The position numbers and the translations under genes are program-made. Under the pieces are notes generated by a model. It ran no database searches. It was given only the letters and a program-made list of their open reading frames with translations, and was not told the DNA's origin. 64,000 bases of DNA, taken from Parcubacteria group bacterium. GTDB lineage: Bacteria > Patescibacteriota > Minisyncoccia > UBA6257 > JACRHW01. Shown here piece by piece: positions 824 to 60,669 of this stretch; position 1 is the first letter of the stretch; each line of letters begins with the position of its first letter. The DNA lies in contig JACRHW010000023.1 of NCBI GenBank assembly GCA_016217555.1, positions 466 through 64,465 on the forward strand, read 5' to 3'.

Positions 824-1663
824 ATGGACACGCAAAATCAAAAAAAAGATGTAGCCTTTTGGCTCGTTGTGGGAGGTGCTGTTTTTCTTGTTGTCTATTC
901 TGCCCTCTTCAACGTTTGGGGCCAACTAGCAGAATTGTATTACAACTCCTATTATTCACTCGATCTAACAAAAAGTCTTTTCTGGCTCTATGTTATACAA
1001 CCGGAAAGTTCCCCTCTCCCCTTTTTCTTAAGTGGATTTATCACCTGGATGATTACAAGAAAGATCACATCGTGGGCTCCCAAAAAACCAAACGAAACCA
1101 TAGAGCAAAGCGCACAACAACAAGCGCCTCAACCGCCCTTATCCCTCCCAAAAAGCTATATATTACAGATAAAATTTGTCTCATGGTCCATAACTGCCAT
1201 AGCCGCTTTTTACTTTCTTTGGTTATCTAGTTCGCTTTTAATAGGATGGAAAGCTGGAACAGCCAGGCCAGATGAACTTTTCTGGGGATCAATGATGTTG
1301 ATAGCTATCGTAGTTCCCCTTGCATTTCTTGCCTTTTCATTTACATTATTTTCTCTACGTCTTCTCAACAAAAATCCACTAGCCGTACTCGTAGCATATT
1401 TCATTGCATTACTTGTCCTCCTTCCCGCCTCTCTCATGATGTTTAGTGACGCGAGTTTGGGAGGATTTGTTTGGCAACTTTTGTTTTTTCTCATTCCTCC
1501 TTTATTTTTCACTCTATCTCTCATACACACTGTGATAGTAATAAGAACGTTTAATGCAAACGAACCAAAGAAAAACTCCCTTATGACAGTAGCACTTTCT
1601 ACACTCATTGTCGCCGATCTTATCGCATCCATCATCATAAGCGTAAACAGCATAACTCCCTAG
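824..1663 (+). CDS. Hypothetical polytopic membrane protein
   Basis: Long ORF with multiple hydrophobic helices and a Pro/Gln-rich linker. No recognizable motif. Confidence 0.55.
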   Translation: MDTQNQKKDVAFWLVVGGAVFLVVYSALFNVWGQLAELYYNSYYSLDLTKSLFWLYVIQPESSPLPFFLSGFITWMITRKITSWAPKKPNETIEQSAQQQAPQPPLSLPKSYILQIKFVSWSITAIAAFYFLWLSSSLLIGWKAGTARPDELFWGSMMLIAIVVPLAFLAFSFTLFSLRLLNKNPLAVLVAYFIALLVLLPASLMMFSDASLGGFVWQLLFFLIPPLFFTLSLIHTVIVIRTFNANEPKKNSLMTVALSTLIVADLIASIIISVNSITP

Positions 1664-2072: not shown

Positions 2073-2965
2073 GTTCTACCAAACAAACCCTTCACGAAAC
2101 ACCATACACGTGCCCACCAAGATTTTTGAACAGCTGAAGGTGCCTGTTTCACCTCTGTACTTGAGGCCTGTTGCTGTGATTGTACAACCTGTTGTACTGG
2201 AAAATCTGTTTCTTTTTTTGATCCATCATCGAGTGTAATGATCTCTTTTGTTTTGTTGAGTATAAGTTTACCGTCAGTAGCGCGAGTAACTACATATGTT
2301 AATTCTCTATTTTTAAGTGAGCTCGGAAGCGGAACCGTAAAATTACCATCGTCTGCAGTGACAACAATATGCCTATCGTCGTCCGCAAATCTTAGAAAAC
2401 CATCATTTGGATTTCGAAAAGCAGAAAAAAGATTCTCCATTTCTTTAAGACCTGTCTGGTATCGAGCAGTTACACTAAACTCCTTACCGTCTGGATATAA
2501 ACTATCTCTAGATCCATAAACAGGAGTCCCAAAACCATTATTCTCACTATAGGGATGGTAAATTGTCTTGCTATTAAAATACTTTAAAAAATCATTTTTG
2601 TGTATAGCCACCAGCCCTGTCATTTTCAATGGAATTACGCCACCACTACTGTCAAATTGACCAAACTCCGCACTATTTGTGATTGGTGCATATGTTTCCC
2701 CGACTGGATCCCTATCATATTCAACCCAATTTCCAAGGAGAATAAGTTCGCCTTTTAAATCGTCTGATAATAAAACCCTGATAGTTGTACCCACCTCTTT
2801 ACATGTTGGATTTTCATACTTCTGCAGATCATAATTATACTCACCCAAACAAGCCGGAGCAGGGGGACCTTTTGGTCCATCATCTGCTTTTACCAGCGCT
2901 GTTGACACAACTAACGCAGATATCGCAACGAAAATTCCCACAATGATACTATTTTGTTTTTGCAT
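2066..2965 (-). CDS. Hypothetical secreted protein (N-terminal signal peptide / membrane anchor)
   Basis: N-terminal hydrophobic segment (IIVGIFVAISALVVSTALVKA) followed by a hydrophilic domain with two Cys near the N-terminus. No known motif recognized. Confidence 0.55.
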   Translation of the reverse strand: MQKQNSIIVGIFVAISALVVSTALVKADDGPKGPPAPACLGEYNYDLQKYENPTCKEVGTTIRVLLSDDLKGELILLGNWVEYDRDPVGETYAPITNSAEFGQFDSSGGVIPLKMTGLVAIHKNDFLKYFNSKTIYHPYSENNGFGTPVYGSRDSLYPDGKEFSVTARYQTGLKEMENLFSAFRNPNDGFLRFADDDRHIVVTADDGNFTVPLPSSLKNRELTYVVTRATDGKLILNKTKEIITLDDGSKKETDFPVQQVVQSQQQASSTEVKQAPSAVQKSWWARVWCFVKGLFGRTC

Positions 2966-3023: not shown

Positions 3024-3052
3024 TTGATAAATCCGTAAAAACATCGTACAAT
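3024..3052 (+). promoter_or_regulatory. Strong sigma70-type promoter candidate for hppA (TTGATA - 17 nt - TACAAT)
   Basis: Near-consensus -35 and -10 hexamers with 17-nt spacing. The predicted TSS (~3059) makes the downstream palindromic element a 5' leader of hppA. Confidence 0.5.
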
Positions 3053-3084
3053 CGTAACATTATTACTTAACGTACTTTGAATTA

Positions 3085-3229
3085 CGAAATGTATATTTCT
3101 CACACGTTCGCCACTCCAGCGAATGGCTCACTCTTCCGCAAATGCTTCGTTGTCAATCCAGCTCGCTCCAACTCGGGATTGACAACACCCAGCTTCGCAT
3201 TCGCGGAATGGTTCGAAACACACATTTCG
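3085..3229. ncRNA. Copy 1 of a ~135-145-nt conserved long-hairpin (imperfect palindrome) element in the hppA 5' region
   Basis: Three nested stems: outer (3085-3099/3215-3229), middle (CCGCAAATGC/GCATTCGCGG) and inner (TTGTCAATCC 3150-3159 / GGATTGACAA 3176-3185) around a 16-nt loop. A small side hairpin (GCCA...TGGC) sits in the left arm. A second copy at 51015-51147 keeps all stems by different or compensatory sequence. Confidence 0.6.
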
Positions 3230-3258
3230 TAATTCAAAATAATCTAACAACAATTTTT

Positions 3259-5741: not shown

Positions 5742-6647
5742 TTATCTCCCCATTTCCCTTAAGGCCCTAATCCTCTCTTCGATAGGTGGGTGCGTCATAA
5801 AAAGCGTATGAAGCCATGGCGTCTTCTTCTGACCTTCGAAGGGATCGCTTAACCACAAATGCGCGGTCGTACTATTTGCAGTAGGCATAGGAATAGCACT
5901 CGCCGCGATCTTCTCTAGTGCACTCGCCAAACCCTCAGGATAACGGGTAAGAAGCACTCCCGAGGCGTCTGCGAGCGACTCACGCTTCCTTGAAATAGCG
6001 AGTTGCATAAGCGTAACTGCTATGGGAGCGAGAATAGACAGAGCAATACCTATGATAATAAAAATGCCATTATTCCCACCGTTATCATCGTCTCTCTCAC
6101 GCAATCCACCCCACATCCATGAACGTAAAAACCAATCTGCAAGAAGAGATATAAATCCTGTCAAAACCACAGCGACAGTCGAAACAAGCATGTCTCTATT
6201 TCCTACATGAGAAAGTTCGTGTGCAAGCACCCCCTCAAGCTCGGTGCGATTCATGATCCGCAAAAGACCCTGTGTTACTGCAACCACAGCGTGCTGTGGA
6301 TCACGACCCGTTGCAAAAGCATTGGGCTGATCTTCAGGAATAATATAAATCTTAGGTGTTGGTAACCCTGCGGTAATCGAAAGATTTTCGACAATACGAT
6401 ACAGCTCTGGAGCATCTTCAAAAGAAACAGATTGGGCACCCGCCATACTAAGGACAATTGAATCAGAAAACCAGTAGCTAATGATACTCATAAAAGAGCT
6501 AAAGAAAACAGCTACATACAAAATATTGGAATTTCCATAAGCCCTCGAGAAAACAAACCCAACCCCAATCACCACCACAAAAAACACGGTGAACATCAGC
6601 CATGTTTTTCGAATATTCGCTCCTTTGTATGTATAAATATTTGCCAT
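5742..6647 (-). CDS. htpX: Zinc metalloprotease HtpX (peptidase M48)
   Basis: HELSHVGNRD (HExxH) zinc site, N-terminal TM helices, and M48-like overall similarity. Confidence 0.85.
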   Translation of the reverse strand: MANIYTYKGANIRKTWLMFTVFFVVVIGVGFVFSRAYGNSNILYVAVFFSSFMSIISYWFSDSIVLSMAGAQSVSFEDAPELYRIVENLSITAGLPTPKIYIIPEDQPNAFATGRDPQHAVVAVTQGLLRIMNRTELEGVLAHELSHVGNRDMLVSTVAVVLTGFISLLADWFLRSWMWGGLRERDDDNGGNNGIFIIIGIALSILAPIAVTLMQLAISRKRESLADASGVLLTRYPEGLASALEKIAASAIPMPTANSTTAHLWLSDPFEGQKKTPWLHTLFMTHPPIEERIRALREMGR

Positions 6648-16100: not shown

Positions 16101-16824
16101 CACTCTTACCTGTTCTAGTGGCGGTGTTTCGTATACATTCCCCACACCGATCGTCATTAAAATCCTCTCTATCCCAGTCTTCACTATCTACCCCACTACA
16201 ATCTACAGAAGTAATCCTACTACAGCCACTCTTACTTGGATTACCAAAAATGCATCAACATGTAACGCCTCATCGGATCCAAATGTATCTGATTGGTCGG
16301 GATTAAAAACGGTAGGCAACGATGCTTCGGGACAAGGTTCTCAAAAACAACAAACGATAACGCTCCCGAGTCCACCCAAAGGATCTGCACCAAGAAAATA
16401 CACTCTCACATGTACAGGTCCAGGAGGAGCGCCAAGTCTCCCGAAATCCATAGAGGCACCAAAAGATTTCATTTTCCATACCCTACTCACCAAAATAACG
16501 TGTTCAAAAGACAACACAACCTTTGGAGACTGTTCTGGAATAAAGCTTGTTGCAGGAAGCTCAATATATCTTAAGGACGAATCTGATCCAACACCAGGCT
16601 CAACAATTTCAAGTCGTCTATGGACATTTAGTAACGGGAAACCATCAACATGTCCTTCATCTCATGCAGGATGTACTAATCTACAAATCCCAAAAGTATC
16701 CTTCCTTACCGAAGGGACACAAACGGCAACGCTTGTCGTAACCGATTCTGCGGGAGAGACAGAAACGATCTCGAAGACATTCAAAATCTCAAAACCATCA
16801 TTCCAAGAAACAGCGCCACAGTAG
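13138..16824 (+). CDS. Giant surface protein, paralog 1: signal peptide, N-domain, central membrane helical hairpin, 4 Ig-like Cys-containing repeats, conserved C-terminal domain
   Basis: 1,228-aa ORF. Signal peptide MRIIVKFFSVFTISVTLLTPSLLFAQS. TM helix + KRKKGG followed immediately by a second signal-peptide-like helix (aa ~410-455). Four ~85-aa repeats with the pattern L.W.S.NA..C...(YTLTC). The C-terminus is near-identical to paralog 2. Confidence 0.8.
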   Translation: MRIIVKFFSVFTISVTLLTPSLLFAQSPISQTPIPLIGGSYAPPAQVDVVNVVLEKQQYNDGDTIRGSFALRNERAESVPAIYYKIILGGDFDAQGNAGTIYDVKTFTPYFLRPGEFKTIQFEYTPPIGVTGKHLGIIINAFLEQGTPVSWSFPIFLNVAGDFSYINASDTKIVVNKKEFSTEEGPALYKNQVVEYHVTLQNPSSKQITITPKIDIYKRVALPPTLKSYNEKQITLAPKEKKQIVFELPDFDYKAGVYAGTILLINKEGKQQGPLLTFRYLVLGDTLTIENVTPSHTSVTKGASFSIRVDYSTPLIDFATSQTVDLGTPILEIQAYNERDSLVAEGKSTINPTKIERNKIFQLKASDDAKALRIEAKILKDDVIIAKYSTNLSSDYAIQKERKDLSYQGTLRAWVYGVIVILLLLAATGLFLLKRKKGGTLLVVGAIFLAIFSSHETKAQLGKQTQLGYQTQTQEQQCTSQGGVWVLNTSNTGGSCTLPQSLSLDSVAASPNPTSWSSQVTTLGWSGKDEVKIITETKDVCVPGKACVPQTTQSAKTFPTTCTLSGDKYSNYNITSYQNDSVNMFSAGPVFLGGDKSFILGGGTSGPGFSTAVPDEGATFTITCSNSNGSHASQVIGVGVGGTFTYTTAPSINVTPYFNPTAAVQTTLALTASPTQGLVKPRDTIYLGVNTTGSGCTNTFSTAVYTITPTWPGASTQSGSNGVGGHQILNYNLPYTFAVTIPENTPSGIYRIYLSTNYFLGGYWEIKVKAPNPTIGSFSANPTTIAKGGTSYLSWSSNNATYCTLSSVGNVLKNSSSYPVSPTQDTTYTLTCYNASNVPSPTSQLTVNVLSIGSFSGAASIIPKGGSTTLTWSSNHTDSCSLFANGTLFASGLSGNTSYTVSPLVDTTYTLTCYGGGTQISAGNSVPIKILAIDTFTGPANTTILTGDTVNLYWTTRNAASCSLSSVGNVPTTANPFTVSPTQDSTTYTLTCSSGGVSYTFPTPIVIKILSIPVFTIYPTTIYRSNPTTATLTWITKNASTCNASSDPNVSDWSGLKTVGNDASGQGSQKQQTITLPSPPKGSAPRKYTLTCTGPGGAPSLPKSIEAPKDFIFHTLLTKITCSKDNTTFGDCSGIKLVAGSSIYLKDESDPTPGSTISSRLWTFSNGKPSTCPSSHAGCTNLQIPKVSFLTEGTQTATLVVTDSAGETETISKTFKISKPSFQETAPQ

Positions 16825-16840
16825 AAAACTCAACGACCTG

Positions 16841-16872
16841 AAACAAAGCCACGCAATTGCGTGGCTTTGTAG
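16841..16872 (+). terminator. Rho-independent terminator after paralog 1
   Basis: AAAGCCACGC-AATT-GCGTGGCTTT hairpin. Confidence 0.6.
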
Positions 16873-16978
16873 TTATATATGATCACACGATGCAAAAATC
16901 GAAGCTTTACACAAGACGAACACATCTATGCATGGTAAAATAAAGGTGTAAATCTAAAAAAAATAAAACACAAAAAAC

Positions 16979-19900
16979 ATGCGTATTTTAAAATTCTTTT
17001 CGGTCGGAACAATCCTTTTATCATTACTATCCCCTCTCTCGATCTTTGCACAGACACCTACTCCAACACCACCAGCGCAAAAATCTTTTGCACCACCTGT
17101 TCAAGTATATGTTATTGAGGAAACTCTGAACAATGCAGAGTTTAGGGGTGGAGACACAATAAAAGGATCTTTTAAGTTTGTGAACAGAGGAGATGAAAAT
17201 ATTCCTGAAGTATATTACCACTTATCCCTTATGGGCGATTATGACAAAAATGATGCCCCTGGAGTTATTTATGATCAAAAAACATATGGTCCATTTTTCT
17301 TGCATACTCAAGAGACAAAACCTATAGATTTCGAATATACACTACCGAAGGGAATAAGCGGAGATCACATAGGCATACATATTAGTACATTTTTAAAAAC
17401 TGGGTTATTCCTTGGATGGTCACAATCCTTCATAAAAATACAAGGAGAAACACACCGCATAGATTTCTCCAAAGTAAGCTTGGCGGTAGATAAAAACGAG
17501 TTTGATCCAGAAACAGGACCAGCTGTCTATAAAGGAAAACAAATCACCTACAACGTTACCCTGTTTAATCCCTCCACCGATACAATTACATTTACCCCCA
17601 CAAATCACTATATATAAAAGGAATCCTATTCCTCCTGCTATCACAACATACAATGAAAAAGAGATAACCCTCAAATCAAAAGAAAGCAAAGAAGTACGTT
17701 TTCTCTTGCCAACATTCGATTATCAACCATCTGTATATGTCGGCAATATTACCTTTATTACCCAAGACAAAACACCAGCAGGACTCTTCTTAACATTCAG
17801 ATATATAATAATGGGAAAAGTGGTCGGAATAGATTCCATCATATCTGAAAAAACATCTATAGAAAAAGGGCAAACGCTTACTGTTAAAGTAAATTACAGT
17901 GGCGCTCCTGCTGACAATATCACCTTCGAAAATACAAAAATAGGAATTGTCACACTGCGCGTAAAAGTAATAAACGAAACAGGTACGACGATAGGACAGG
18001 GGGAAGAAACTATCGATGCTGATGACCAATCGATGACAACAAAAAACGTCCACATTCTCGCACGAGAAAGTGGGAAAAAAATAAGTGTTGAAGCTCAAAT
18101 CATAAAAGACGGTAGTATCTTGGGGGAATATTCTTCAACACTATCTCCGCCCGAAGAAACAAACAAACTCACCTTATTCCCACTTTCAAAAAAGATCATC
18201 TATTCCTTTATTATTTTTCTCATATTCTTAATGGGCATAATGGTTTTGAAATCAAAAGGAAAAAAGGTAATTACAATTTTCTTGCTAGGACTCTCCCTCA
18301 CAACACCTGGACTAACTATACCAAATACATCACGTGCCGCATCGGGTACCTCCTATTTCCAATATACTTCTTCATCTCATACTTCAGTTCGAGATCTCAC
18401 TTTCGATCTTACTGGCGTAAATCCAATTCCCTACTATCTAAATCCAGGAGAGTCTTTCTATATATCAGGAACATATGTGGGTGGGTTCTGCGCTAATGGT
18501 CATTTGCAAGGAAGCACTTCGGTAAGTATCTCAGGAGGAGGAAGTTGGAGCTGGGGATGGAATATTCAAGGGTCTGGTGGTCATCATCATGGAGTTTTTT
18601 CTCAAGGGTTTGGCTATTGGGTTTCTGCACCAACACAGCCAGGTGTATATAATGTTAATTTCTCGACCAATGCACTTGGCCCATCAATAAACGGCTACTG
18701 GCAAATCCAAGTTATCCCCCCTCCTCCATCAATAAACTATTTTAATGGAGGCCCACTTGTAACCATTCCAGGAATTCCCGCATATCTGAATTGGTCATCA
18801 AATAACGCCTCCTCGTGCACGGTGTGGGGAAGTTCCAGTGGTCTCCCTCCAGTAAGATCTGGTTATCCCGTATATCCAAACCAAGACACCTCATACAGTC
18901 TCACGTGTTATAATTCGGCCGGTGTTTCAGCTAGCTATCCCTACCCCATAACCGTATCTATACTGCGTATTAATTCCTTTGGTGGCAGTCCGCCAATAAT
19001 TGCAAAAGGTGGTTCGGAAAATCTTTTCTGGTCTTCAAACCATGCATCAAACTGCGTTATCCCAGGTGTCGGAACATTCTATCCCGGTTCTTCAGCGACA
19101 GTATCCCCGATACAAGACACTACCTACACACTACAATGTTCTAATGGGGGTGTGTCTATTACCTATCCAACCCCTGTCACCGTCAAAGTTCTATCTATAG
19201 ATTCGTTCGGAACTTCTTCCCTCATCGCTTCTGGGGAATCTGCGACTCTTACATGGACTTCTCATAATGCAATCTCCTGCTCACTATCAGATGGATCCAA
19301 AACAATCGCAAGTGGTCTTCCTGGAAATGGCTCACATCCAATTTCCCCACAACAAGATACTTCGTACACCCTCACCTGCACAAATGGAAGCGTCTCATAT
19401 ACCTACCCCACACAAGTCACTATTAAGATTCTCGATATTCCTATTTTTACCATTGATCCAAAGGAAATCAATCGTGGTCAACAGGCAACGCTCACGTGGA
19501 TTACTAAAAATGCATCCACGTGTACCGCCTCGTCAAATCCGAACGATTCCACGTGGATATATACCAACCCGCCAAAAAATGATAATCAACAATCAAAAAA
19601 TGTTACACCACCAAATCTACCTCCAGGGTCAATACTTCGCAACTATTCTCTCACCTGTACAGGACCTAGTGGAATACCAAGTCTCACAAAATCAATACCG
19701 GCTCCAGGGCTTAAGGTTCACACCCTTCTTCCTGAATTTCAATGTTCAATGACAGGACAACCAGGATCCTTCGGGGATTGTTCAACTATGAAGTTGGTTG
19801 CAGGAACTACAATATATTTCAAAGACACCTCCAGTCCAACCCCACAAGCAACTATTGCAAGTCGGGCATGGATATTTACGAATGCAAAACCAGCAGGATC

Positions 19901-20048
19901 AAATACAGCAACCACAAAAACATCCTTCCTTACCGAAGGGACACAGACAGCAACGCTTGTCGTAACCGATTCTGCGGGAGAGACAGAAACGATTACCAAA
20001 ACATTCAAAATCTCGAAACCATCGTTCCAGGAGACAGCGCCACAGTAG
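16979..20048 (+). pseudogene. Giant surface protein, paralog 2, interrupted by a +1 frameshift in a C5 tract (track ORFs 16979..17617 and 17502..20048)
   Basis: The two overlapping frames align collinearly with paralog 1 (…ITFTP | QITIYKR… versus ITITPKIDIYKR). Removing one C at 17595-17599 restores a single ~1,020-aa ORF with the same architecture as paralog 1. Confidence 0.7.
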
Positions 20049-20062
20049 AAATGTTGAAACCC

Positions 20063-20096
20063 AAAACAAACCCACGCAATTGCGTGGGTTTGTTGT
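20063..20096. terminator. Terminator after paralog 2 (also downstream of the convergent minus-strand gene)
   Basis: AAACCCACGC-AATT-GCGTGGGTTT hairpin. Same structure as the paralog-1 terminator with compensatory G/C swaps. Confidence 0.6.
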
Positions 20097-20123
20097 TATG
20101 TATCATTTCCTACAATGGCTCAC

Positions 20124-29529: not shown

Positions 29530-29973
29530 CTACTTAATATCCAATTTTTCTATTCTTCTCTCGTGTCGCTCTTCGCCTGAAAAAGGAAGAGAAAGCCAAA
29601 GAGTGATCATGCTTATTGCTTCGTCTTCGGTAAGAAAACGGACGCCCAAGGAAAGAACGTTTGCATCATTATGTTCACGAGAAAGCTTTATAATTTCGTG
29701 ATTACCGCCATAGTACACAGTTGCCCGTATACCTGACACTCGATTCGCTACCATCGCTTCACCCTGTCCTGAACCACCAAGGATAATTCCCCTACTTTCT
29801 TTATCCTGTGCAACAGCTTCGGCCACAGGACGAATAAAATCAGGATAATCATCGTCGGGATCCAAAGAAAAAGCACCAAAGTCTTTCACCTCGTGTCCCT
29901 TCTCGAGAAGAAAAGTTTTTATCTTCTCCTTAAGTTCAAACCCAGCATGATCAGTACCCAAATATATCTTCAT
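29530..29973 (-). CDS. rpiB: Ribose-5-phosphate isomerase B
   Basis: MKIYLGTDHAGFELKEKI, GIILGGSGQGEAMVANRV, and RpiB/LacAB family pattern. Confidence 0.85.
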   Translation of the reverse strand: MKIYLGTDHAGFELKEKIKTFLLEKGHEVKDFGAFSLDPDDDYPDFIRPVAEAVAQDKESRGIILGGSGQGEAMVANRVSGIRATVYYGGNHEIIKLSREHNDANVLSLGVRFLTEDEAISMITLWLSLPFSGEERHERRIEKLDIK

Positions 29974-30074
29974 AAGATGAACATACTAATATACGAATTA
30001 TACTAATACGTACTAATACCTTTCGTATTCGTAACCATTCGTATCATTTGCATTGATTCGTATATTGGTATTAT
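29974..30074 (-). promoter_or_regulatory. Shared leader module upstream of rpiB (20-nt cassette with 4-codon uORF + TACGAA repeats/palindrome)
   Basis: The 20-mer AAGATGAACATACTAATATA (plus strand) is identical at 29974-29993, 31089-31108 and 32711-32730. ~85 further nt are shared with the gap upstream region. Confidence 0.6.
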
Positions 30075-31088
30075 TTATAGTATTTCTCCTGCCTTCAATA
30101 CATGTTGTACAAGCGTTGAAGCATATCCCCACTCATTGTCGTACCACGAAAGTATCTTTACCAAATCTCCATCGATTACTTTTGTAAATTGCAAATCCAC
30201 AATAGCACCATACGATTCCCCCACGATATCGGACGAAACAAGCTGGTCATTACTTACCTTTAAAATATTCTGCCAACGAGGCTCTGAAGCTGCTTTCGTT
30301 AAAATTACATTCACCTCCTCTACTGTTGTCTTTCTCTTTGCTAAAAAAGTGATATCCGCAAGTGAGCCCGCCACCACAGGAATACGCAATGCGATCCCAT
30401 CAAACTTATTATTAAGTTCTGGGATTGCCCGAGCAACCGCAATCGCTGCTCCTGTTGTAGATGGTGCAATATTCTGCCCCGCAGCGCGGCCACGCCTAAA
30501 GTCTTTACCCTTCGTTGGCCCATCAACAAGGTTTTGTGTTGCTGTATATGCGTGTACCGTGCTTAACACCGCCTTTTCTATCCCTATCGCCTCTGACAAC
30601 ACAGCAATCACAGGAGAAGTAGCATTTGTTGTACACGATCCATTTGAGGTAATAGTACAAGAACTCATGTTGGTATCATTCACCCCCATAAGAATTGTTT
30701 TTCCTCCAGCAGTACCTTCTTCGTCCTTTGCCGGTGCGGTGATCACCACCCGCTTTGCCCCAGCATCCAAATGCACTTTTGCTTTTTCAAATGATTCAAA
30801 TACCCCTGTCGATTCCACCGCAACATCAATACCCATATCCTTCCACGGAAGTTGCATAGGATCTTTAATTTGAAGCACTTTTATTACCACCCCATCTACC
30901 ACCAAATTTCCATCTACCACCTCAACATTTTTATCATAACGACCGTACACTGTATCAAATTTCAAAAGATAGGCGAGATTCTCTACATCCCCAAGATCAT
31001 TAATCGCAATAACATTCGCCTTTCCATGAAGCTGGCGAAACAAAAGCCGCCCAATACGCCCAAAACCATTTATAGCTACATTAATCAT
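30075..31088 (-). CDS. gap: Glyceraldehyde-3-phosphate dehydrogenase (type I)
   Basis: MINVAINGFGRIGR NAD-binding motif and active-site SCTTN. Confidence 0.9.
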   Translation of the reverse strand: MINVAINGFGRIGRLLFRQLHGKANVIAINDLGDVENLAYLLKFDTVYGRYDKNVEVVDGNLVVDGVVIKVLQIKDPMQLPWKDMGIDVAVESTGVFESFEKAKVHLDAGAKRVVITAPAKDEEGTAGGKTILMGVNDTNMSSCTITSNGSCTTNATSPVIAVLSEAIGIEKAVLSTVHAYTATQNLVDGPTKGKDFRRGRAAGQNIAPSTTGAAIAVARAIPELNNKFDGIALRIPVVAGSLADITFLAKRKTTVEEVNVILTKAASEPRWQNILKVSNDQLVSSDIVGESYGAIVDLQFTKVIDGDLVKILSWYDNEWGYASTLVQHVLKAGEIL

Positions 31089-31202
31089 AAGATGAACATA
31101 CTAATATACAAATTATACTAATAATACGAATACGTACTAATACCTTTCGTATTCGTAACCATTCGTATCATTTGCATTGATTCGTATATTGGTATAGTAT
31201 AC
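31089..31202 (-). promoter_or_regulatory. Shared leader module upstream of gap (cassette + TACGAATACG-N13-CGTATTCGTA palindrome + TACGAA direct repeats + TATAAT box)
   Basis: Near-identical to 29974-30074. Perfect 10-bp inverted repeat at 31125-31156. Confidence 0.6.
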
Positions 31203-32144: not shown

Positions 32145-32174
32145 ATTTATTTAGTGCCTGAGCCCGTCGAAGGC

Positions 32175-32456
32175 CTACCATTTACCCCATTCACCTTGAA
32201 TAAGTTTTTCTTTCTTTCGTCGCGTCCATCTTTTAATTTGTTTCTCCCTCCTCCTTGCTTCGTCTAAATTATTATATTCCTCGAGGTATACTACTCGTAC
32301 AGGTTTATGTTTTTCTGTATATACCGAACCTATTCTTGATAGGTGCTGCATCCATCTTGTGTCAGGTTGCGAAGTCAATCCAGTATAATAACTCTCATCT
32401 ATACATTCGATGATATAAACATACCATTTCCATTCCATAAGGTACCCCTTCGACAA
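32175..32456 (-). CDS. GIY-YIG nuclease-domain small protein
   Basis: YVYIIEC.DESYYTGLTS...R..QH GIY-YIG core. 93 aa with a basic C-terminal tail. Confidence 0.65.
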   Translation of the reverse strand: MSKGYLMEWKWYVYIIECIDESYYTGLTSQPDTRWMQHLSRIGSVYTEKHKPVRVVYLEEYNNLDEARRREKQIKRWTRRKKEKLIQGEWGKW

Positions 32457-32482
32457 GCTCAGGGAATATAATTTTATAGTAA

Positions 32483-32710
32483 CTAGATTCTAAGGAGTTC
32501 TCTAAGCTTCCCTTCATTAAATCCAATAACAATTTCTCCGTCGACATCAATAACGGGCACCCCAAGCTGGCCTGATTTATCTACCATAGCCTTCCGCGCC
32601 TCGAGATCTTCGAGAACATTTGTCTCTTTATATTCAACGTTATTCTTTGTAAAAAATTCTTTTGCCTTTTTACAATAAACACATGTGGGTGTTGTATAGA
32701 TAGTTATCAT
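32483..32710 (-). CDS. Glutaredoxin-like protein (NrdH/Grx, CxxC)
   Basis: MITIYTTPTCVYCKKAKEFF thioredoxin fold. 75 aa. Confidence 0.7.
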   Translation of the reverse strand: MITIYTTPTCVYCKKAKEFFTKNNVEYKETNVLEDLEARKAMVDKSGQLGVPVIDVDGEIVIGFNEGKLRELLRI

Positions 32711-32730
32711 AAGATGAACATACTAATATA

Positions 32731-33468
32731 TTATTTTTTTAATGCTGTCTCTATCTCTTTTTGGAGCACAGAGAAGGGAACCGCACCTACCACTAATTTC
32801 CCATTAATAAAGAATGATGGAGTGCCCTGCACACCAGCATCCAAGCCATCCTTCACATCCTTAGCCACCTCATCAGCGTACTTGTGTGTATCAAGGCACG
32901 CATTAAACTGTATCTCTCTCATCCCCAACTCCTTTCCCCACTTTTTGAGATCGGCTACCGTTGCCACGCCATTTTTCTGCTCTCCAAAAATTTTGTCATG
33001 CATTTCCCAAAATTTTCCCTGTTCATGCGCACACTCCCCAGCCTCTGCATACGTTTGCGCCATTTCATGAATGGCAAGTGGAAAATCACGATACACCAAC
33101 TTCACTTTACCCGTATCGATATACCCACTCTTTATCTGAGGAAATGTTTCATTAAAAAACTTGCCACAAAATGGACATTGAAAGTCGCTAAATTCTACGA
33201 TCGTAACGGGAGCATTGGCATCTCCCAATATGGGATCGTCATCGGGTAACTTAACAACATCGATCGGGGCAGTTTGAGTGTTTTGCGCTCCAATTGCCGC
33301 AAGATTATTGTTACCACCCCGCGAGGCTACGCCTGGATTATTGGTTGCATAATATACACCTGAAAATATCACACCCACAGCAAGAATCGAAGAAGCAATC
33401 ACAAATGCCCCATTACCTAAATTGTTATTCTGTCTCCCACCAGACGCAGATGATGTTTCTTCCTCCAT
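32731..33468 (-). CDS. DsbA-family thiol:disulfide oxidoreductase (membrane-anchored/secreted)
   Basis: N-terminal hydrophobic anchor. FSDFQCPFCGKFF (CPFC) active site. Confidence 0.75.
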   Translation of the reverse strand: MEEETSSASGGRQNNNLGNGAFVIASSILAVGVIFSGVYYATNNPGVASRGGNNNLAAIGAQNTQTAPIDVVKLPDDDPILGDANAPVTIVEFSDFQCPFCGKFFNETFPQIKSGYIDTGKVKLVYRDFPLAIHEMAQTYAEAGECAHEQGKFWEMHDKIFGEQKNGVATVADLKKWGKELGMREIQFNACLDTHKYADEVAKDVKDGLDAGVQGTPSFFINGKLVVGAVPFSVLQKEIETALKK

Positions 33469-43579: not shown

Positions 43580-43775
43580 AGTTTTATACTACGCAATCTC
43601 TAAAAGAGTTGCAAAACATAAAAACAAGCCTACCATACCATCCTAACACCTAGAAGCTAAAAGCTAACCCCTCGTTCATTATCCCACAATCAAAAATCCC
43701 CATACTCTTGCTAAAAATTACAAACCATGCTAACCTATCTACAGCCCATTTACAACAAGAAGGGGGGTGAACACA

Positions 43776-44675: not shown

Positions 44676-46364
<1,689 letters not shown>

Positions 46365-46447
46365 TTAGGTGTTAGCTTTTAGGGATAGCCGAAACGAAAC
46401 TAACTCTCTACGCCCCCAATAAACTAATACACTAAAACCCAACAAAC

Positions 46448-46741: not shown

Positions 46742-46828
46742 ATTTTAGCTTTTAGCTTTTAGCTTTTAGCTTTTAGGAACCCCTAACGAACTAACACACT
46801 AAAACCTAATAGTCTTTTAAATTTGTAA

Positions 46829-46855
46829 TTGGCACTCTCGACATATGAGTGCTAA
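46829..46855. promoter_or_regulatory. CIRCE operator (HrcA binding site) upstream of groES: TTGGCACTC-N9-GAGTGCTAA
   Basis: Matches the CIRCE consensus TTAGCACTC-N9-GAGTGCTAA at 17 of 18 positions. 88 nt upstream of the groES ATG. Confidence 0.85.
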
Positions 46856-47259: not shown

Positions 47260-47295
47260 ACCTCCTTTTACTCACGATCGTGAGTAAAAGGAGGT
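47260..47295. repeat. Perfect 36-bp palindrome ACCTCCTTTTACTCACGA|TCGTGAGTAAAAGGAGGT combining an anti-SD-like arm (CACCTCCTTT) with an SD-like arm (AAGGAGGT)
   Basis: Read directly. Lies in a ~1-kb stretch (46860-47910) without convincing ORFs. Confidence 0.5.
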
Positions 47296-48889: not shown

Positions 48890-49917
48890 GAGGTAATTTC
48901 CTCGTCAGATTCGTCACTAGTCAAAGCAGCAAGGGGCTGCTCCGCCTTCAAAAGTTTATCAGAAAAACGATGCAAACGCTTTTCCGAATCTTCATAGGCA
49001 GAACGCATATTAGTAAGATGTTTCCCTAGTGTAAGAAAACGCTCTTCAAATTTTCTATAATCATCTCGCAATCGAGATAAGTGATTCAAGATCTCCTGTG
49101 TCTGATGCTCAATCTGCATACCTCGCAATCCGATTAACACTGTTTGAAGATACGTGTACAGTGTGCTCGGGGAAACGGGAATAACATGTTTTTTGAAAGC
49201 ATATTCCAAGAGGGTATCCTCACCTCGTACGATACACTCATAGTAGATGTGCTCAGAGGGTACGTACATAAAGGCTATCTCGAGCGTGTGCTCGTCAGGA
49301 AGAATATACTTCTTATTCACCTCGTCAATTCTATTTTTTACCGAACGCACGAACGCCTTTCGAAATGCTGCCTTCTCCTCATCTCCCTCCGCAGCATTAA
49401 AACGTACGAAATCTTCAAGAGGAAACTTTGAATCAATCGATACAAGTTTATCCTTAAACATCACCACCGCATCAACCGTCTCACCTGTCTTAAACGTATG
49501 TTGTTCCTCAAAATGCTCTTTAGGAAGTATCTCAACAAGAAGCTGAGAAAGCATAAGCTCCCCCAACCCACCCCTCATTTTAGGTACAGAGAGAATGTCT
49601 TTGAGCGAAGAAATATCCTTTGCCACCTCACTTACCTTTGTGATCTCCTGCCCCATAGAGTGAATACGCGCCTGAAATAGTTCACTTGAATGGCGCATAC
49701 TCTCGTGCCCCTCGCGAAGACGCGTGTTCATTTGTGTTGTTAAATCATTCATCTGCTGAAATAAAAGCGCATTCATACGATGTGCCTCGGCAGTAGTAGT
49801 TTGAAGATGTACCGCAAACTTCTCATCACGATGTTTTGAGTTGAGAGAAAACGTGTACAAAAAATAACACAGGACAAGAAATCCTAAGAATAAGATACCT
49901 AGCAATAGTTGGGTCAT
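48886..49917 (-). CDS. rmuC: DNA recombination protein RmuC
   Basis: N-terminal TM, long coiled-coil, and conserved RmuC C-terminal region (...VDAVVMFKDKLVSIDSKFPLEDF..., ...IAFMYVPSEHIYYE...). Confidence 0.75.
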   Translation of the reverse strand: MTQLLLGILFLGFLVLCYFLYTFSLNSKHRDEKFAVHLQTTTAEAHRMNALLFQQMNDLTTQMNTRLREGHESMRHSSELFQARIHSMGQEITKVSEVAKDISSLKDILSVPKMRGGLGELMLSQLLVEILPKEHFEEQHTFKTGETVDAVVMFKDKLVSIDSKFPLEDFVRFNAAEGDEEKAAFRKAFVRSVKNRIDEVNKKYILPDEHTLEIAFMYVPSEHIYYECIVRGEDTLLEYAFKKHVIPVSPSTLYTYLQTVLIGLRGMQIEHQTQEILNHLSRLRDDYRKFEERFLTLGKHLTNMRSAYEDSEKRLHRFSDKLLKAEQPLAALTSDESDEEITS

Positions 49918-50990
49918 TACAATTTGTCTTTATACTTTTCTAGAAATTCACGAAATTCACCGTCTAAACGCGTAGGGAATTTAAGGTGAACCTCTATGAT
50001 AAGTTTACCACGGCGAGAGGAGTTGAGGTGAGGAAATCCCCTTCCCTCGAACGTTACCACCTGTGGGGTTGCCTTGAATGGCTGTACATGAATACGAAGC
50101 TTCTCCCCATCGATATTCTCGAAACTAACCTCCTTCCCTAAAAGTGCCTCTGCCACGTTTACTGTAATTGCAGACATGGTATCAGCTCCATGACGAATAA
50201 ATCGCGTGTGTGGTTTTATATGAATACGAAGATAAAGATCGCCCGTACCCACCCCCCTCTCACCCGCTGAACCTGCACCCACTACTTTAATAATTTGTCC
50301 GTCATCGATACCCGCATTGATATCGACCGACAATTCTTTGCGTTTCTTTATGCGTCCAGCACCTCTACAAACATTGCACTCCTTCTCAGGTACATTTCCC
50401 TTCCCACGACAGACACTGCAGGTCACCACCTTTGCAAAAGTACCAAAAAAACTTTTCTTTGTTTCACGAATCTCTCCGCGCCCATTACATTCTGTACATT
50501 GTTTCGTCTTTGAAGAAAGTGCGCCTGTTCCCTTACAATCAACACATGAAATAAAATCATCAAAGGAAAGTTTCTTCGTAATACCCTTAAACGCCTCTTC
50601 GAAAGTCATCTCAACCTCTTGTACAATGTCATTCCCTTTCTCACGAGTTCTTCGTCGCTGTGAAAGCCCAATATCTTCAAAGAGATCCCCGAACATATCT
50701 CCCAACCCCGAAGCATCAAACCCCTCGAAATTAAAACCACCCGACTGAAAATCGAAGTCACCAAAACCCCCCTGACCCTGCGAACCAGGTGCTGTACCAA
50801 ATTGATCATAATGCTGACGCTTGCCTTTATCAGAAAGCACCTGATACGCCTCAGTTACCTCTTTAAATTTCTGCTCATTTCCGCCCGCACGATCAGGGTG
50901 ATGTTCCCGTGCAAGTTTTCGATACGCCTTTTTAATCTCCTCCTCTGAGGAATTTTTTGAAACACCTAAAATAGAATAAAAATCTTTCAT
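49917..50990 (-). CDS. dnaJ: Chaperone DnaJ (Hsp40, type I)
   Basis: J domain with HPD (YRKLAREHHPDR), a G/F-rich region, four CxxCxGxG zinc-finger repeats, and a C-terminal substrate-binding domain. Confidence 0.9.
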   Translation of the reverse strand: MKDFYSILGVSKNSSEEEIKKAYRKLAREHHPDRAGGNEQKFKEVTEAYQVLSDKGKRQHYDQFGTAPGSQGQGGFGDFDFQSGGFNFEGFDASGLGDMFGDLFEDIGLSQRRRTREKGNDIVQEVEMTFEEAFKGITKKLSFDDFISCVDCKGTGALSSKTKQCTECNGRGEIRETKKSFFGTFAKVVTCSVCRGKGNVPEKECNVCRGAGRIKKRKELSVDINAGIDDGQIIKVVGAGSAGERGVGTGDLYLRIHIKPHTRFIRHGADTMSAITVNVAEALLGKEVSFENIDGEKLRIHVQPFKATPQVVTFEGRGFPHLNSSRRGKLIIEVHLKFPTRLDGEFREFLEKYKDKL

Positions 50991-51014
50991 AGTTTGTTAA
51001 TTTAAATTGCACCA

Positions 51015-51147
51015 CACCTATCTCTCACACGTTCGCCACTCCAGCGGTGGCTCACTCTTCCGCAGGCGCTTCGTTGTCAATCCAATTCGTTTCACTCAGG
51101 ATTGACAACACCCAGCTTCGCACCTACGGAATGGTTCGAGATAGGTG
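51015..51147. ncRNA. Copy 2 of the conserved long-hairpin element, inside the dnaK operon between the membrane-protein gene and dnaJ
   Basis: ~85% identical to copy 1 in the core. The outer stem is CACCTATCTC (51015-51024) / GAGATAGGTG (51138-51147), a different sequence from copy 1 but in the same position. The middle stem carries compensatory changes. Confidence 0.6.
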
Positions 51148-51167
51148 TACCGCAATTTAAAATATCG

Positions 51168-52196
51168 TTATGAAAGTAAAAGTGTCTCTTTACTTCGCGG
51201 TTCGAATTGAATAGTTACGATACCTATGATTATCAAAAGCTCAAGAAAAATGTATCCTACCACAAGAACTCCCCAATACACAAAAATACCGAAACTCCTC
51301 ACGATAAGAAAACCAAGTACTCCGATAGCAACAAGAAATAACGGCGTCTCTTTAAAGCCCTGCGGAATTATTTTTTCATTGATACTGCTATATGCCACAT
51401 CATAAAGGGACGTTGAGGGTTCAACGCGGGATCCTGTAAACTCCTCCCACTTGCCCCCCAGCTCCTTAACCACATCACGCACTATCTGCTTTTTTTGTGC
51501 TTTCACTTGGGGTGTATTTAAATCTATACCTGCTCCAAGGGATTCTTTTGCATATACATCAAATCTTCGTTCTGCCTCCTGCTTCAGAAAAGCGTCAAAT
51601 TCTAATCCTCCACTAAATCCTGGCAAGAACTTTTGAATAATAGGCATCGTGGAATCAATCATGTCTCGTACATACACCTCTGGGAGAACTACTCGTTTAG
51701 TAGCAACTCCAAACATGCTCATATAAAGCATTACAAGGAACAAGGCGAGTGCATTAAGATACCACCCCATACCACCACGAATTACCTTACTCCACCGTAT
51801 CTTAAGCCCCTCTTCTTTTTCATGAAATATCAAATGACCTCCCCACATCACTGCAAAGATAATGAGTGTTAAAAAGAGAATATCAAGAACATCCTTTGGA
51901 AAAAAAGCTGCTCCTATGGACAATCCCACCACACCCACAATATGCACAATAACAACCAGCCTCCTTTCTGTAAAAAGAAGTGCGCTCAAACAAAGAAAAG
52001 AAAGAAAAATAATACTGCCACCCAAAAACCACCACGAGCTCGACATTCCAAATAAAGGAATAAGCGAGAGCGTTCTTCCTCCTAAAAAACCGAGAACCAA
52101 CGCGGTAACAAAAATAAACACAACGCCAAGAAACGCCTTAATAGGCGTCCTGGTTTTTTCTATATTACTATTCAGTTCCTTCTTTTTTAGGTTCAT
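51168..52196 (-). CDS. Hypothetical polytopic membrane protein encoded within the dnaK operon
   Basis: 342 aa. Basic N-terminus then ~7 TM helices plus a soluble C-terminal part. Overlaps the dnaK stop by 29 nt. Confidence 0.55.
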
Positions 52197-55314: not shown

Positions 55315-55375
55315 ATGTTGAGCTTATAGGTTTTAGCTTCTAGCTATTAGGACGACAAGAATAAAACCTACCTAT

Positions 55376-55413
55376 ATTTTAGCAATTAGCACTCTAATGT
55401 CAAGAGTGCTAAC
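55376..55413 (-). promoter_or_regulatory. hrcA promoter overlapping a perfect CIRCE operator (CIRCE 55387-55413: TTAGCACTC-N9-GAGTGCTAA; -35 TTGACA at 55399-55404 inside the CIRCE spacer; -10 TAAAAT at 55376-55381, minus strand)
   Basis: 18/18 match to the CIRCE consensus. The sigma70 hexamers have 17-nt spacing and are embedded so that HrcA binding would occlude the promoter. Confidence 0.8.
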
Positions 55414-59867: not shown

Positions 59868-59934
59868 AGGTCAAAACTACAACGCAAAACCTAAAACTAG
59901 TAACTCCTAAAAGCTAACAGCTATGGGCTAAAAG

Positions 59935-60669
59935 CTAGTTTGGTGTTGCCGTAAGTGTAACTGTCGCTCCATAACTTCCATCAGAAATTGTAGCACCTTT
60001 ATTCTCTGCTTTATAGCGAATAGTTGTAGTGTTTCCCACTGCAGACGTTCTCGTATAAATTCTGCTTACAAGTTCCTTGGTGGCGCCCTTAAGGCCCAAA
60101 AAACATAAACCATTTGCAGTCCCACCTCCACATGTTGACCCCGTATTTTTAAAGTTGGTCATCACATCCATTCCTGTTGCAGAAAATCCGAACGCAGCAC
60201 CCGTTGCAAGTTGCCATAATTCAGGAATAGTACTTACCGCTTCGGAGTAATCATTGATCGAACTTGAACTAGAAGCAAGTGCCGGAGTACCGCTCGCATT
60301 AATTTCTAATTTGTATCCTGCAGGATTATCAGTAATTACCGTTACAGAAGTGGTACCAGAAGCGACACCGGATACTCCACTCTGCAGAGCAGGAGTAAGC
60401 GTTGTCGAACTGGCAAGAGATATAGAAATAAAAGACTCGTTGAGCTGTAAAAAACCACCGAAAGCCCTATAGCTTGCACTCTGCATAAGTCCGGGAGCAA
60501 GTTCTCCTGAAGTATCTGTTGCTCTATAATTTGTAGAACTACTAAGACCGGATGCATCATTCAAAGAGTCCTGCAAAATTTTGAAATTTTGGGAACTCAT
60601 AGTATCACCCCACACAAGTGAGGTGAGAATAAAAAAGGCAATTACACTAATGCTGGCACGTGTGATCAT
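59935..60669 (-). CDS. Secreted Ser/Thr/Gly-rich surface protein (244 aa), possibly WxL/cell-wall-associated-like
   Basis: Signal peptide MITRASISVIAFFILTSLVWG, low-complexity S/T/G-rich beta-rich sequence, and a single ELWQL motif. The assignment is tentative. Confidence 0.55.
   Translation of the reverse strand: MITRASISVIAFFILTSLVWGDTMSSQNFKILQDSLNDASGLSSSTNYRATDTSGELAPGLMQSASYRAFGGFLQLNESFISISLASSTTLTPALQSGVSGVASGTTSVTVITDNPAGYKLEINASGTPALASSSSSINDYSEAVSTIPELWQLATGAAFGFSATGMDVMTNFKNTGSTCGGGTANGLCFLGLKGATKELVSRIYTRTSAVGNTTTIRYKAENKGATISDGSYGATVTLTATPN

Follow-up and report, generated by a model that had tools for sequence, protein, structure and literature searches.

A putative dispersed structured-RNA element in the dnaK operon and the hppA leader of a Parcubacteria group bacterium

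The Correia repeat-enclosed elements (CREE/NEMIS) of Neisseria are co-transcribed small palindromic repeats whose hairpin can be bound by RNase III and either cut or protected (PMC2649163, PMC2229807, PMC10969869). Here we describe a hairpin-forming element of ~165 nt that is present in two copies in a 64,000-nucleotide stretch of DNA from a Parcubacteria group bacterium (contig JACRHW010000023.1, positions 466 to 64,465; the whole of this stretch is hereafter the window). Copy 2 is located inside the dnaK operon, between dnaJ and a membrane-protein gene denoted gene X, and copy 1 is located in the 5′ leader of hppA. The element family is previously undescribed and matches no Rfam family. The reading that we tentatively prefer, with somewhat less than even confidence, is that the feature upstream of dnaJ is a copy of a non-coding, non-autonomous, dispersed and insertion-polymorphic structured-RNA element. 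To our knowledge, almost nothing is known on non-coding RNAs or small mobile repeats in bacteria of the Candidate Phyla Radiation (CPR).

A covariance model built from the homologues identifies exactly two copies of the element in the window, at 3085-3228 and 51010-51151, both on the minus strand (163.5 and 155.3 bits, respectively; E ~1e-39). The same two regions were delineated by repeat finding, which yields three collinear blocks on the same strand (families D6, D8 and D9) common to 3073-3241 and 50998-51164. In a pairwise alignment the two copies show 83% column identity, in the same register on the plus strand, and an inverted-repeat search shows that the arms of copy 2 (50998-51024 and 51138-51164) are 85% complementary. 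An earlier note on this DNA, made from the sequence alone, had proposed a hairpin element in two copies, and these results agree with that proposal. The interval assigned there to copy 2, 51015-51147, spans the core together with the inner portion of the terminal helix, and the full extent is 51001-51162. The gene coordinates likewise confirm the proposed position of copy 2 between the membrane-protein gene and dnaJ, both on the minus strand, and the proposed opposition of the two copies, which share a DNA strand and are opposed in orientation relative to their host transcription units. The features of the two copies and their immediate surroundings are as follows.

51001..51162, minus strand: copy 2, full element including the terminal helix P1 (155.3 bits; minus-strand fold −81.8 kcal/mol, z = −8.8)
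51138..51162, minus strand: 5′ arm of P1 of copy 2 (UUUUAAAUUGCGGUACACCUAUCUC), which pairs with 51001-51025
51025..51137, minus strand: conserved core of copy 2, with covariation in its favour
51120-51131 with 51058-51069, minus strand: helix P2 of the copy 2 core, preceded by the junction strand J1/2, GAACCA
between P2 and P2b, minus strand: internal loop of the copy 2 core, GAAGCUGGG/AA
51099-51110 with 51072-51083, minus strand: helix P2b of the copy 2 core, with the apical region at 51084-51098
51035-51051, minus strand: hairpin P3 of the copy 2 core, with J2/3, GAGUGA, before it and J3/1, GAACGUGUGA(G), after it
51001..51025, minus strand: 3′ arm of P1 of copy 2, which ends 10 nt ahead of the dnaJ start codon
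3076..3239, minus strand: copy 1 in the hppA 5′ leader (core 3100-3214; 163.5 bits), with the better-folding strand antisense to hppA
3024..3052, plus strand: hppA promoter, TTGATA-17-TACAAT (10/12 matches), upstream of copy 1 and conserved in relatives that lack the element
51168..52196, minus strand: gene X, encoding a 342-aa membrane protein without a Pfam match, with its stop codon 5 nt upstream of copy 2
49917..50990, minus strand: dnaJ, directly downstream of copy 2 (ATG at 50988-50990)

Copy 2 thus fills the spacer between gene X and dnaJ, from 5 nt past the stop codon of the former to 10 nt ahead of the start codon of the latter, within a tightly packed minus-strand series of genes that consists of hrcA, grpE, dnaK, gene X, dnaJ, rmuC and a nucleotidyltransferase gene. 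Copy 1 lies between a sigma-70 promoter that is kept in two relatives and the hppA ATG, from which it is ~20 nt away.

Beyond the window, seven further full copies, and one fragment at a contig end, were identified in related Patescibacteria contigs, and the element-bearing loci accordingly comprise the window, L002, L003, L004, L006 and L013. An exact-pattern scan of the junction sequences retrieved one locus from the GTDB genomes (L002, in a metagenome-assembled genome labelled Candidatus Saccharibacteria), and a pattern scan of metagenomes retrieved L003 and L004, both from Hainich groundwater, and L006; one further match, L005, lies inside a coding sequence and was rejected as a chance hit. 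The first metagenome pattern, GAACCATTCC...GGAAGAGTGAGCC, gave no matches because several homologues read GGAUGAG there. The covariance model showed three copies within the 11 kb of L006 and a second complete copy in L004, and it identified the copy in L013, a contig that was reached via a homologue of a window protein. The copies of L006 are located around recA and ftsK, at 1324-1468 (minus), 2651-2793 (plus) and 5758-5901 (minus); in the last of these P1 is partly degenerate and the 3′ junction is altered, and it may be a decaying copy.

Searches of the described families and of mobile-element sequences were negative. Against the 4227 families of Rfam 15, which include 6S, SRP, Y RNA/YrlA, HEARO, hammerhead, twister, pistol, hatchet, HDV-like and riboswitch families, the window yields only two tRNAs at the gathering score, the region 50900-51260 yields only noise at E <= 10 (a CRISPR repeat and a small nucleolar RNA), and nothing is found over the element in the homologous loci at E <= 1. 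The core has no match in phage and plasmid collections by blastn in a mode for distant similarity, two core patterns have no match in viral contigs, and nothing relevant turned up in the literature on non-coding RNAs and repeats of CPR, Saccharibacteria, Patescibacteria and Parcubacteria. When the P1 arms were considered as guides or spacers, the only matches in the window were to the partner arm, and no exact 20-21-mers were found in viral contigs. As far as searched, the family is confined to a narrow Parcubacteria/Patescibacteria clade. Homologues of DnaJ, HppA and a helicase assign the window to the Parcubacteria/Patescibacteria, and proteins identical to those it encodes carry the annotation Parcubacteria group bacterium.

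The nine full copies, which come from at least five assemblies, all fit one three-way junction. The terminal helix P1 (22-28 bp) pairs the ends of the element and is free in sequence and constant in pairing: the arms differ in sequence among the copies, and the 5′ arm of copy 2 bears no sequence relation to inner P1 in copy 1, with the pairing nevertheless kept. The three junction strands read GAACCA, GAGUGA and GAACGUGUGAG. P2, a helix of 12 bp, is followed by an asymmetric internal loop in which GRAGCNNGG faces GA or AA, and then by P2b, also of 12 bp, with the near-fixed sequence UGUUGUCAAYCC paired with GGRUUGACAACG and a closing U-G pair in eight of the nine copies. P2b extends via purine-purine mismatches to a small apical stem with one further covarying pair, G-C in five copies and A-U in four by inspection of the alignment. 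P3 is a 7-bp hairpin with the loop GCUG, and its variants among the copies include GCCAC/GUGGC, GGAUACC/GGUAUCC and GUCAUCC/GGAUGAC. Judging from the sequence and the RNAalifold pairs, the purine-rich junction strands could form two symmetrical tandem G-A motifs beside short helices.

The fold is maintained by compensatory change. In the nine-sequence alignment, which was fitted to the structure model, 94% of the pair cells in the 43 modelled pairs form standard pairs, as against just 34-49% in registers displaced by 1-3 columns, and in 20 of the 43 pairs both partners have changed; the observed values are not attained by any of 500 column shuffles. Compensation is most extensive in P1 (10 of the 12 inner pairs) and P3 (5/7), reaches 4/12 in mid-P2, and is hardly to be seen in P2b, which hardly varies.

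The fold is also strand-specific. Both strands of both window copies fold with z-scores of −7.9 to −11.0, with 0 of 200 shuffles equally stable, and the minus strand folds better in copy 1 (−84.8 vs −58.7 kcal/mol) as well as in copy 2 (−81.8 vs −62.8 kcal/mol), an advantage of 17-26 kcal/mol across the two. The minus strand folds better because G-U pairs turn into A-C mismatches on the opposite strand. Over the nine full copies the modelled pairs include 42 G-U vs 8 A-C, and the orientation equivalent to the window minus strand is the more stable one in eight copies, with little difference between the strands in the ninth. A single folding strand is thus defined for the element, and in the window it is the minus strand. 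With DNA energy parameters the bias is smaller and in the same direction (−39.0 vs −33.4 kcal/mol). It is thus the native orientation that is present in the mRNA of the dnaK operon, which is under CIRCE/HrcA control, and the reverse complement that is present in the hppA mRNA. The earlier note had this assignment reversed: it correctly placed copy 1 in the hppA leader, where it took the copy to be in the sense orientation, and it took the dnaK-operon mRNA to carry the reverse complement. Its further suggestion of an orientation-independent hairpin is not supported, in view of the excess of G-U over A-C pairs and the greater stability of one orientation in eight of the nine copies.

Comparison with related genomes indicates that both window copies are lineage-specific insertions. 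In L009 (DnaJ 66% identical), the stop codon (TAA) of a gene X homologue (374 aa, 36% identity, E = 2e-48) is separated from the ATG of dnaJ by 12 nt, with no element, and the equivalent site in the window reads TAA-5 nt-[162 nt element]-10 nt-ATG. In the closest relatives, L007 (from the same metagenome-assembled genome as L002; DnaJ 87% identical to that of the window) and L008, dnaK (89% identical) is followed by dnaJ after 67 nt, with neither gene X nor the element in between; the element is likewise absent from L010. At the hppA site, L011 (84% identical) and L012 (82%) have the hppA promoter, then CGTARCATTG, and a leader of ~45-55 nt, and the covariance model detects no copy in either. 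In the window, promoter and leader start are the same (TTGATA-17-TACAAT-CGTAACATT), with ~165 extra nt ahead of the ATG. Since these relatives keep the promoter and the leader without the element, hppA appears to be transcribed through the element, which was added to a pre-existing leader.

Next to copy 1, the window shows a further difference from these relatives. Between a LOG-family gene and the hppA promoter there are three genes without a Pfam match (824-2965), two of them encoding predicted membrane proteins and one a 299-aa putatively secreted protein; in L011 and L012 a terminator and then the hppA promoter come directly after the LOG-family gene, and the ~2.1-kb block is therefore window-specific.

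The genomic contexts of the nine copies are functionally heterogeneous. The genes beside them are hppA, dnaJ, rpoC, recA (twice), ftsK and genes for an ABC-F ATPase, a cold-shock protein, a Sua5-like protein and MnmA, and no two of the copies occupy orthologous positions. About half of the copies (copy 1, L002, L004a, L004b and L006a) have the folding strand antisense to the flanking genes, and copy 2, L006c, L006d and probably L003 have it in the sense direction. This dispersal of the family over unrelated loci argues against a dnaK-operon-specific function and, together with the empty sites, indicates that the element is not a dedicated regulator of that operon.

More generally, cis-regulation of dnaJ and/or hppA by a riboswitch, RNA thermometer, attenuator or terminator, for which the position of the element directly upstream of dnaJ in a heat-shock operon and in the hppA leader, as well as its very high stability, could be adduced, is most improbable. 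The two host mRNAs carry opposite strands of the element, the other copies adjoin unrelated genes in either orientation and often in convergent arrangements, and the corresponding operon and hppA leader of close relatives lack it. A riboswitch or leader at a constant position was rejected on these contexts, in line with the view, already taken in the earlier note, that a riboswitch is unlikely. P1 of copy 2 is followed by UUAACAAACUAUG, without a U-tract, and a terminator scan finds none on the minus strand of 50500-51700, which disposes of an intrinsic terminator; a helix of ~26 bp would not melt at heat-shock temperatures. Furthermore, the operon already has a perfect CIRCE operator, and both CIRCE sites of the window are outside the element:

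55386..55412, plus strand: perfect CIRCE operator, TTAGCACTC-N9-GAGTGCTAA (0 mismatches), overlapping a TTGACA/TAAAAT promoter upstream of hrcA
46829-46855: second CIRCE site (1 mismatch), upstream of groES

To judge from its sequence, the hrcA-grpE-dnaK-X-[element]-dnaJ operon thus appears to have heat-shock control of a conventional kind, in which the element is not involved. Runs of 7- and 14-nt repeats (minus-strand CCUAAAAGCUAAAAGCUAAAAG...) are found directly before the start codons of groEL (46347-46397), groES (46742-46778) and hrcA (55318-55351), and related repeats in the opposite orientation are found at 43642-43672 and 59905-59937, near the dnaG start and a gene for a 1344-aa surface protein; these runs could act as an operator, or as a motif in leaders or in translation.

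The strong covariation, along with the near-invariant junctions and P2b and the U-G pair closing P2b, would also suit stand-alone, multi-copy, trans-acting structured small RNAs, either protein-binding or catalytic, that have their own sense transcription or are excised by cleavage of P1, the core being the functional part and P1 serving processing or stability. In support of such an origin, the sense strand of the L002, L006a and L004b copies is antisense to both neighbours and is followed by a terminator or a hairpin. We regard it as a serious alternative, less likely than the preferred reading; the surroundings of the copies count against it. None of them has a sense-direction promoter (at least 9/12 sigma-70 matches) directly upstream, and neither strand provides a −10 box to go with the TTGACA/TTGTCA that is conserved in P2b; canonical promoters are evident in this clade, as exemplified by the hppA and CIRCE promoters. 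In copy 1 and L006a just 20-25 nt separate the 5′ end from a divergent gene's start codon, the 5′ end of copy 2 is 5 nt past a stop codon, L006d and L013 have a terminator just upstream of the element, and the positions of the copies are not conserved between related genomes.

Terminators are a recurrent neighbour of the family, and so is a second structured element. The L002 copy is located ~20 nt past the rpoC terminator, and at the same site the related L006 has a different long-stem element, RNA2. This second element is unrelated to the first and measures ~120 nt, including a long terminal stem; the sequence of the core is ...AAACGAAUCCUCAAGGGGGAGUCAGGUG...GGAGACGAGUG. It is present at 6478-6596 (plus) in L006 and at ~1005-1110 (plus) in L004, where it and a copy of the main element stand back to back. 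No Rfam family matches it, and no copy was detected in the window. The occurrence of the two elements at the same site or side by side suggests shared safe-haven insertion sites.

Several observations weigh against a dispersed, insertion-polymorphic element. Copies from the same genome (copy 1 vs copy 2; L006a, L006c and L006d) differ almost completely in inner P1, the loops and mid-P2, with the core and the pairing kept. A recently active transposon would leave near-identical copies, and divergence at the free positions with a conserved core has the look of prolonged purifying selection on every copy, not of a recent transposition burst; such saturation also favours the small-RNA alternative. 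No conserved terminal inverted repeat, target-site duplication or mobilising enzyme was found in the window or the related loci. Three copies (L002, L004b and L006c) have a terminator within 15-20 nt downstream in the sense direction, as a small-RNA gene would have, but these are bidirectional terminators of convergent genes. Finally, homologues were found via exact junction patterns, and the conservation of the core is accordingly over-estimated.

Part of this evidence would be explained by a new kind of RNA-defined unit, which we regard as unlikely: a constant core of ~115 nt (a ribonucleoprotein scaffold or a ribozyme) between free-sequence arms that form a helix of ~25 bp, acting as a trans-acting multi-copy small RNA excised by RNase III or propagating via an RNA intermediate. 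Such a unit would account for the conservation of the core rather than the ends and for a fold that is strand-specific regardless of the orientation of the host gene.

With respect to classical MITEs (miniature inverted-repeat transposable elements), dispersed non-coding copies with presence/absence polymorphism were found, that is, nine full copies and the empty sites of L007/L008, L009, L011 and L012. Conserved terminal inverted repeats shared with a parent insertion sequence were not, given that the P1 arms differ and no insertion sequence is present in the sequence examined. The ends of copies 1 and 2 and of the homologues show no evident direct repeat, with boundaries that are uncertain by a few nt. 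Transposases, integrases and reverse transcriptases are absent from a Pfam scan of the 36 window proteins and from the annotation of L009-L016.

The empty sites in relatives keep alive the option, raised from the outset, of an element that acts at the DNA level. In its specific form, a mobile element whose fold acts as single-stranded DNA and is mobilised in trans by a Y1/HUH transposase, in the manner of IS200/IS605 derivatives or REPIN-RAYT, with the strand bias reflecting the active strand, we judge this option quite unlikely. It would be compatible with the insertion polymorphism, the random orientation to genes, the clustering near terminators and another hairpin element, and the strand asymmetry that remains under DNA parameters. 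In both window copies, moreover, the folding strand is the G-rich strand, probably the lagging-strand template. However, the three L006 copies are mixed in orientation within 11 kb, and a strict replication-strand bias was rejected on these grounds. Transposases usually read conserved ends, whereas the ends of this element are variable, and no Y1 or HUH transposase gene is present in the ~250 kb of sequence examined; the identity as a REPIN-RAYT or IS200-IS605 derivative was dismissed for want of a Y1 (HUH) transposase among the 36 window proteins (Pfam) and in the annotation of L009-L016. We rate RNA as likelier than single-stranded DNA because of the near-invariant three-way junction, the potential tandem G-A motifs and the U-G pair closing P2b in eight of the nine copies, the first two being more typical of RNA tertiary structure.

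Identification with a described RNA was considered as well. A self-cleaving ribozyme or a retro-mobile, retrozyme- or retron-like RNA module that excises itself from host transcripts is very unlikely. The purine-rich, near-invariant junction, in which GGAUGAGUGA-stem-GAAC loosely recalls CUGAUGA-stem-GAAA of the hammerhead, the paired ends, and the tolerance of copies inside transcripts are what could be expected of it. Nevertheless, no Rfam ribozyme family is matched even at E <= 10, no reverse transcriptase gene lies beside any copy, and the hammerhead core is lacking: U4 is G, 4 extra nt precede the stem, there is no 15.1-16.1 pair, and there is no single-nucleotide junction. The hammerhead was thus rejected, the junction reading C-G-G-A-N-G-A, then an additional GUGA ahead of the stem, and GAAC past it, and the third junction being 6 nt long, without an Rfam match. 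A retron non-coding RNA was rejected as well, the downstream genes being hppA or the gene for the 299-aa protein, dnaJ and others, with no RVT domain. 6S RNA was excluded by the presence of at least three copies within 11 kb of L006, a 5′ junction strand of just 6 nt and the lack of an Rfam 6S match, and a conserved small open reading frame by inspection, the ATG frame of L006a being absent from the window copies.

Under the preferred reading of an inserted structured-RNA element, spread would be effected by a trans-acting machinery, with the conserved core serving either the spread itself or a role at the RNA level. Given paired ends, an inserted copy would loop out of the host transcript, which could explain the tolerance of insertions in 5′ leaders and tight operon junctions and how 162 nt fit into a spacer of ~12-15 nt. 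At copy 2, looping out would place the gene X stop and the dnaJ start within ~15 nt of each other, plausibly preserving their coupling. A near-perfect duplex of at least 22 bp is a classical RNase III substrate and also blocks 3′ exonucleases. P1, at 22-28 bp in all copies, exceeds the near-perfect duplex length of at least about 20 bp required of an RNase III-processed hairpin, and would be a plausible RNase III substrate and/or 3′ exonuclease barrier. It could consequently split or stabilise the message, in line with the proposal of the earlier note, uncoupling dnaJ-rmuC from hrcA-grpE-dnaK-X, which would be a by-product and not dedicated regulation.

Other repeats in the window are distinct in location from the two copies. 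Two ~110-nt repeats, 29970-30071 and 31085-31195, with a partial third at 32707-32745, are 96-97% identical; each starts at the start-codon region of a minus-strand gene (one for a 147-aa protein; the other being the gene gap) and contains TACTAATA-type sub-repeats and an internal inverted repeat, and they look like a duplicated promoter/leader region. Two large plus-strand genes, whose products measure 1228 aa and 848 aa (with a weak PKD-domain match in the 848-aa protein), have a common 161-nt 3′ coding end (16667-16827 vs 19891-20051, 86% identity), each followed by a similar palindromic terminator (16836-16883 vs 20059-20106). A perfect 18+18 bp palindrome, ACCTCCTTTTACTCACGA/TCGTGAGTAAAAGGAGGT, is located in non-coding sequence downstream of groES (47260-47295), and a 22-nt inverted repeat with arms 172 nt apart is contained in the unusually long (~590 nt) intergenic stretch that separates trxB from a DsbA-like gene (32145-32730).

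The element unites traits that are usually separate, namely dispersal of the MITE/REP type and conservation of the kind seen in functional RNAs. Should the core act as RNA, the family would represent a new class of structured RNA among organisms whose genomes are tiny; should the element be purely selfish, a loop-out hairpin would allow it to occupy a ~15-nt spacer of a heat-shock operon and leave the operon intact. For annotation, the hairpin should not be read as a regulator of dnaK or hppA.

Among known systems, several share part of these traits. Covariation-supported orphan bacterial non-coding RNA motifs are likewise intergenic, GC-enriched and multi-stemmed, with compensatory changes and conserved junction nucleotides (PMC11109978, PMC8632094); the present element differs in being multi-copy and insertion-polymorphic, in occurring in both orientations inside host transcripts, and in matching none of the 4227 Rfam 15 families. 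Retron non-coding RNAs (msr-msd) resemble it as RNAs of ~170 nt in which a long terminal stem of variable sequence (a1/a2) encloses a long hairpin and short hairpins, whereas the element has no downstream reverse transcriptase, is multi-copy, and fits the arm order only on its less stable strand. REP and REPIN sequences, which are mobilised by RAYT (TnpA-REP), are hairpin-forming, extragenic, non-autonomous and lineage-persistent like the element, with stems kept by compensation and a frequent location near terminators (PMC3116915, PMC8266576). A REPIN, however, consists of two inverted REPs of conserved sequence and a variable spacer, the opposite of the pattern of conservation described here, and no RAYT gene is present in the sequences examined. 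With CREE, ERIC, IRU, RUP and BOX the element shares a non-coding sequence of ~100-160 nt, an intergenic or intra-operon location in either orientation, pairing ends that form a long hairpin, and insertion polymorphism (PMC2649163, PMC2229807, PMC10969869). CREE and classical MITEs differ from it in their high copy number, in their target-site duplications and in terminal inverted repeats whose sequence is conserved; the element has a sequence-free terminal helix, a conserved internal three-way junction with RNA-like covariation, a strand-specific fold, and a low copy number (~1-3 per 10-60 kb where present), with no duplication seen. In its behaviour the element is thus closest to repeats of the Correia/CREE, ERIC and REPIN type, with the conservation reversed: the ends are variable, and the core is conserved and covarying.

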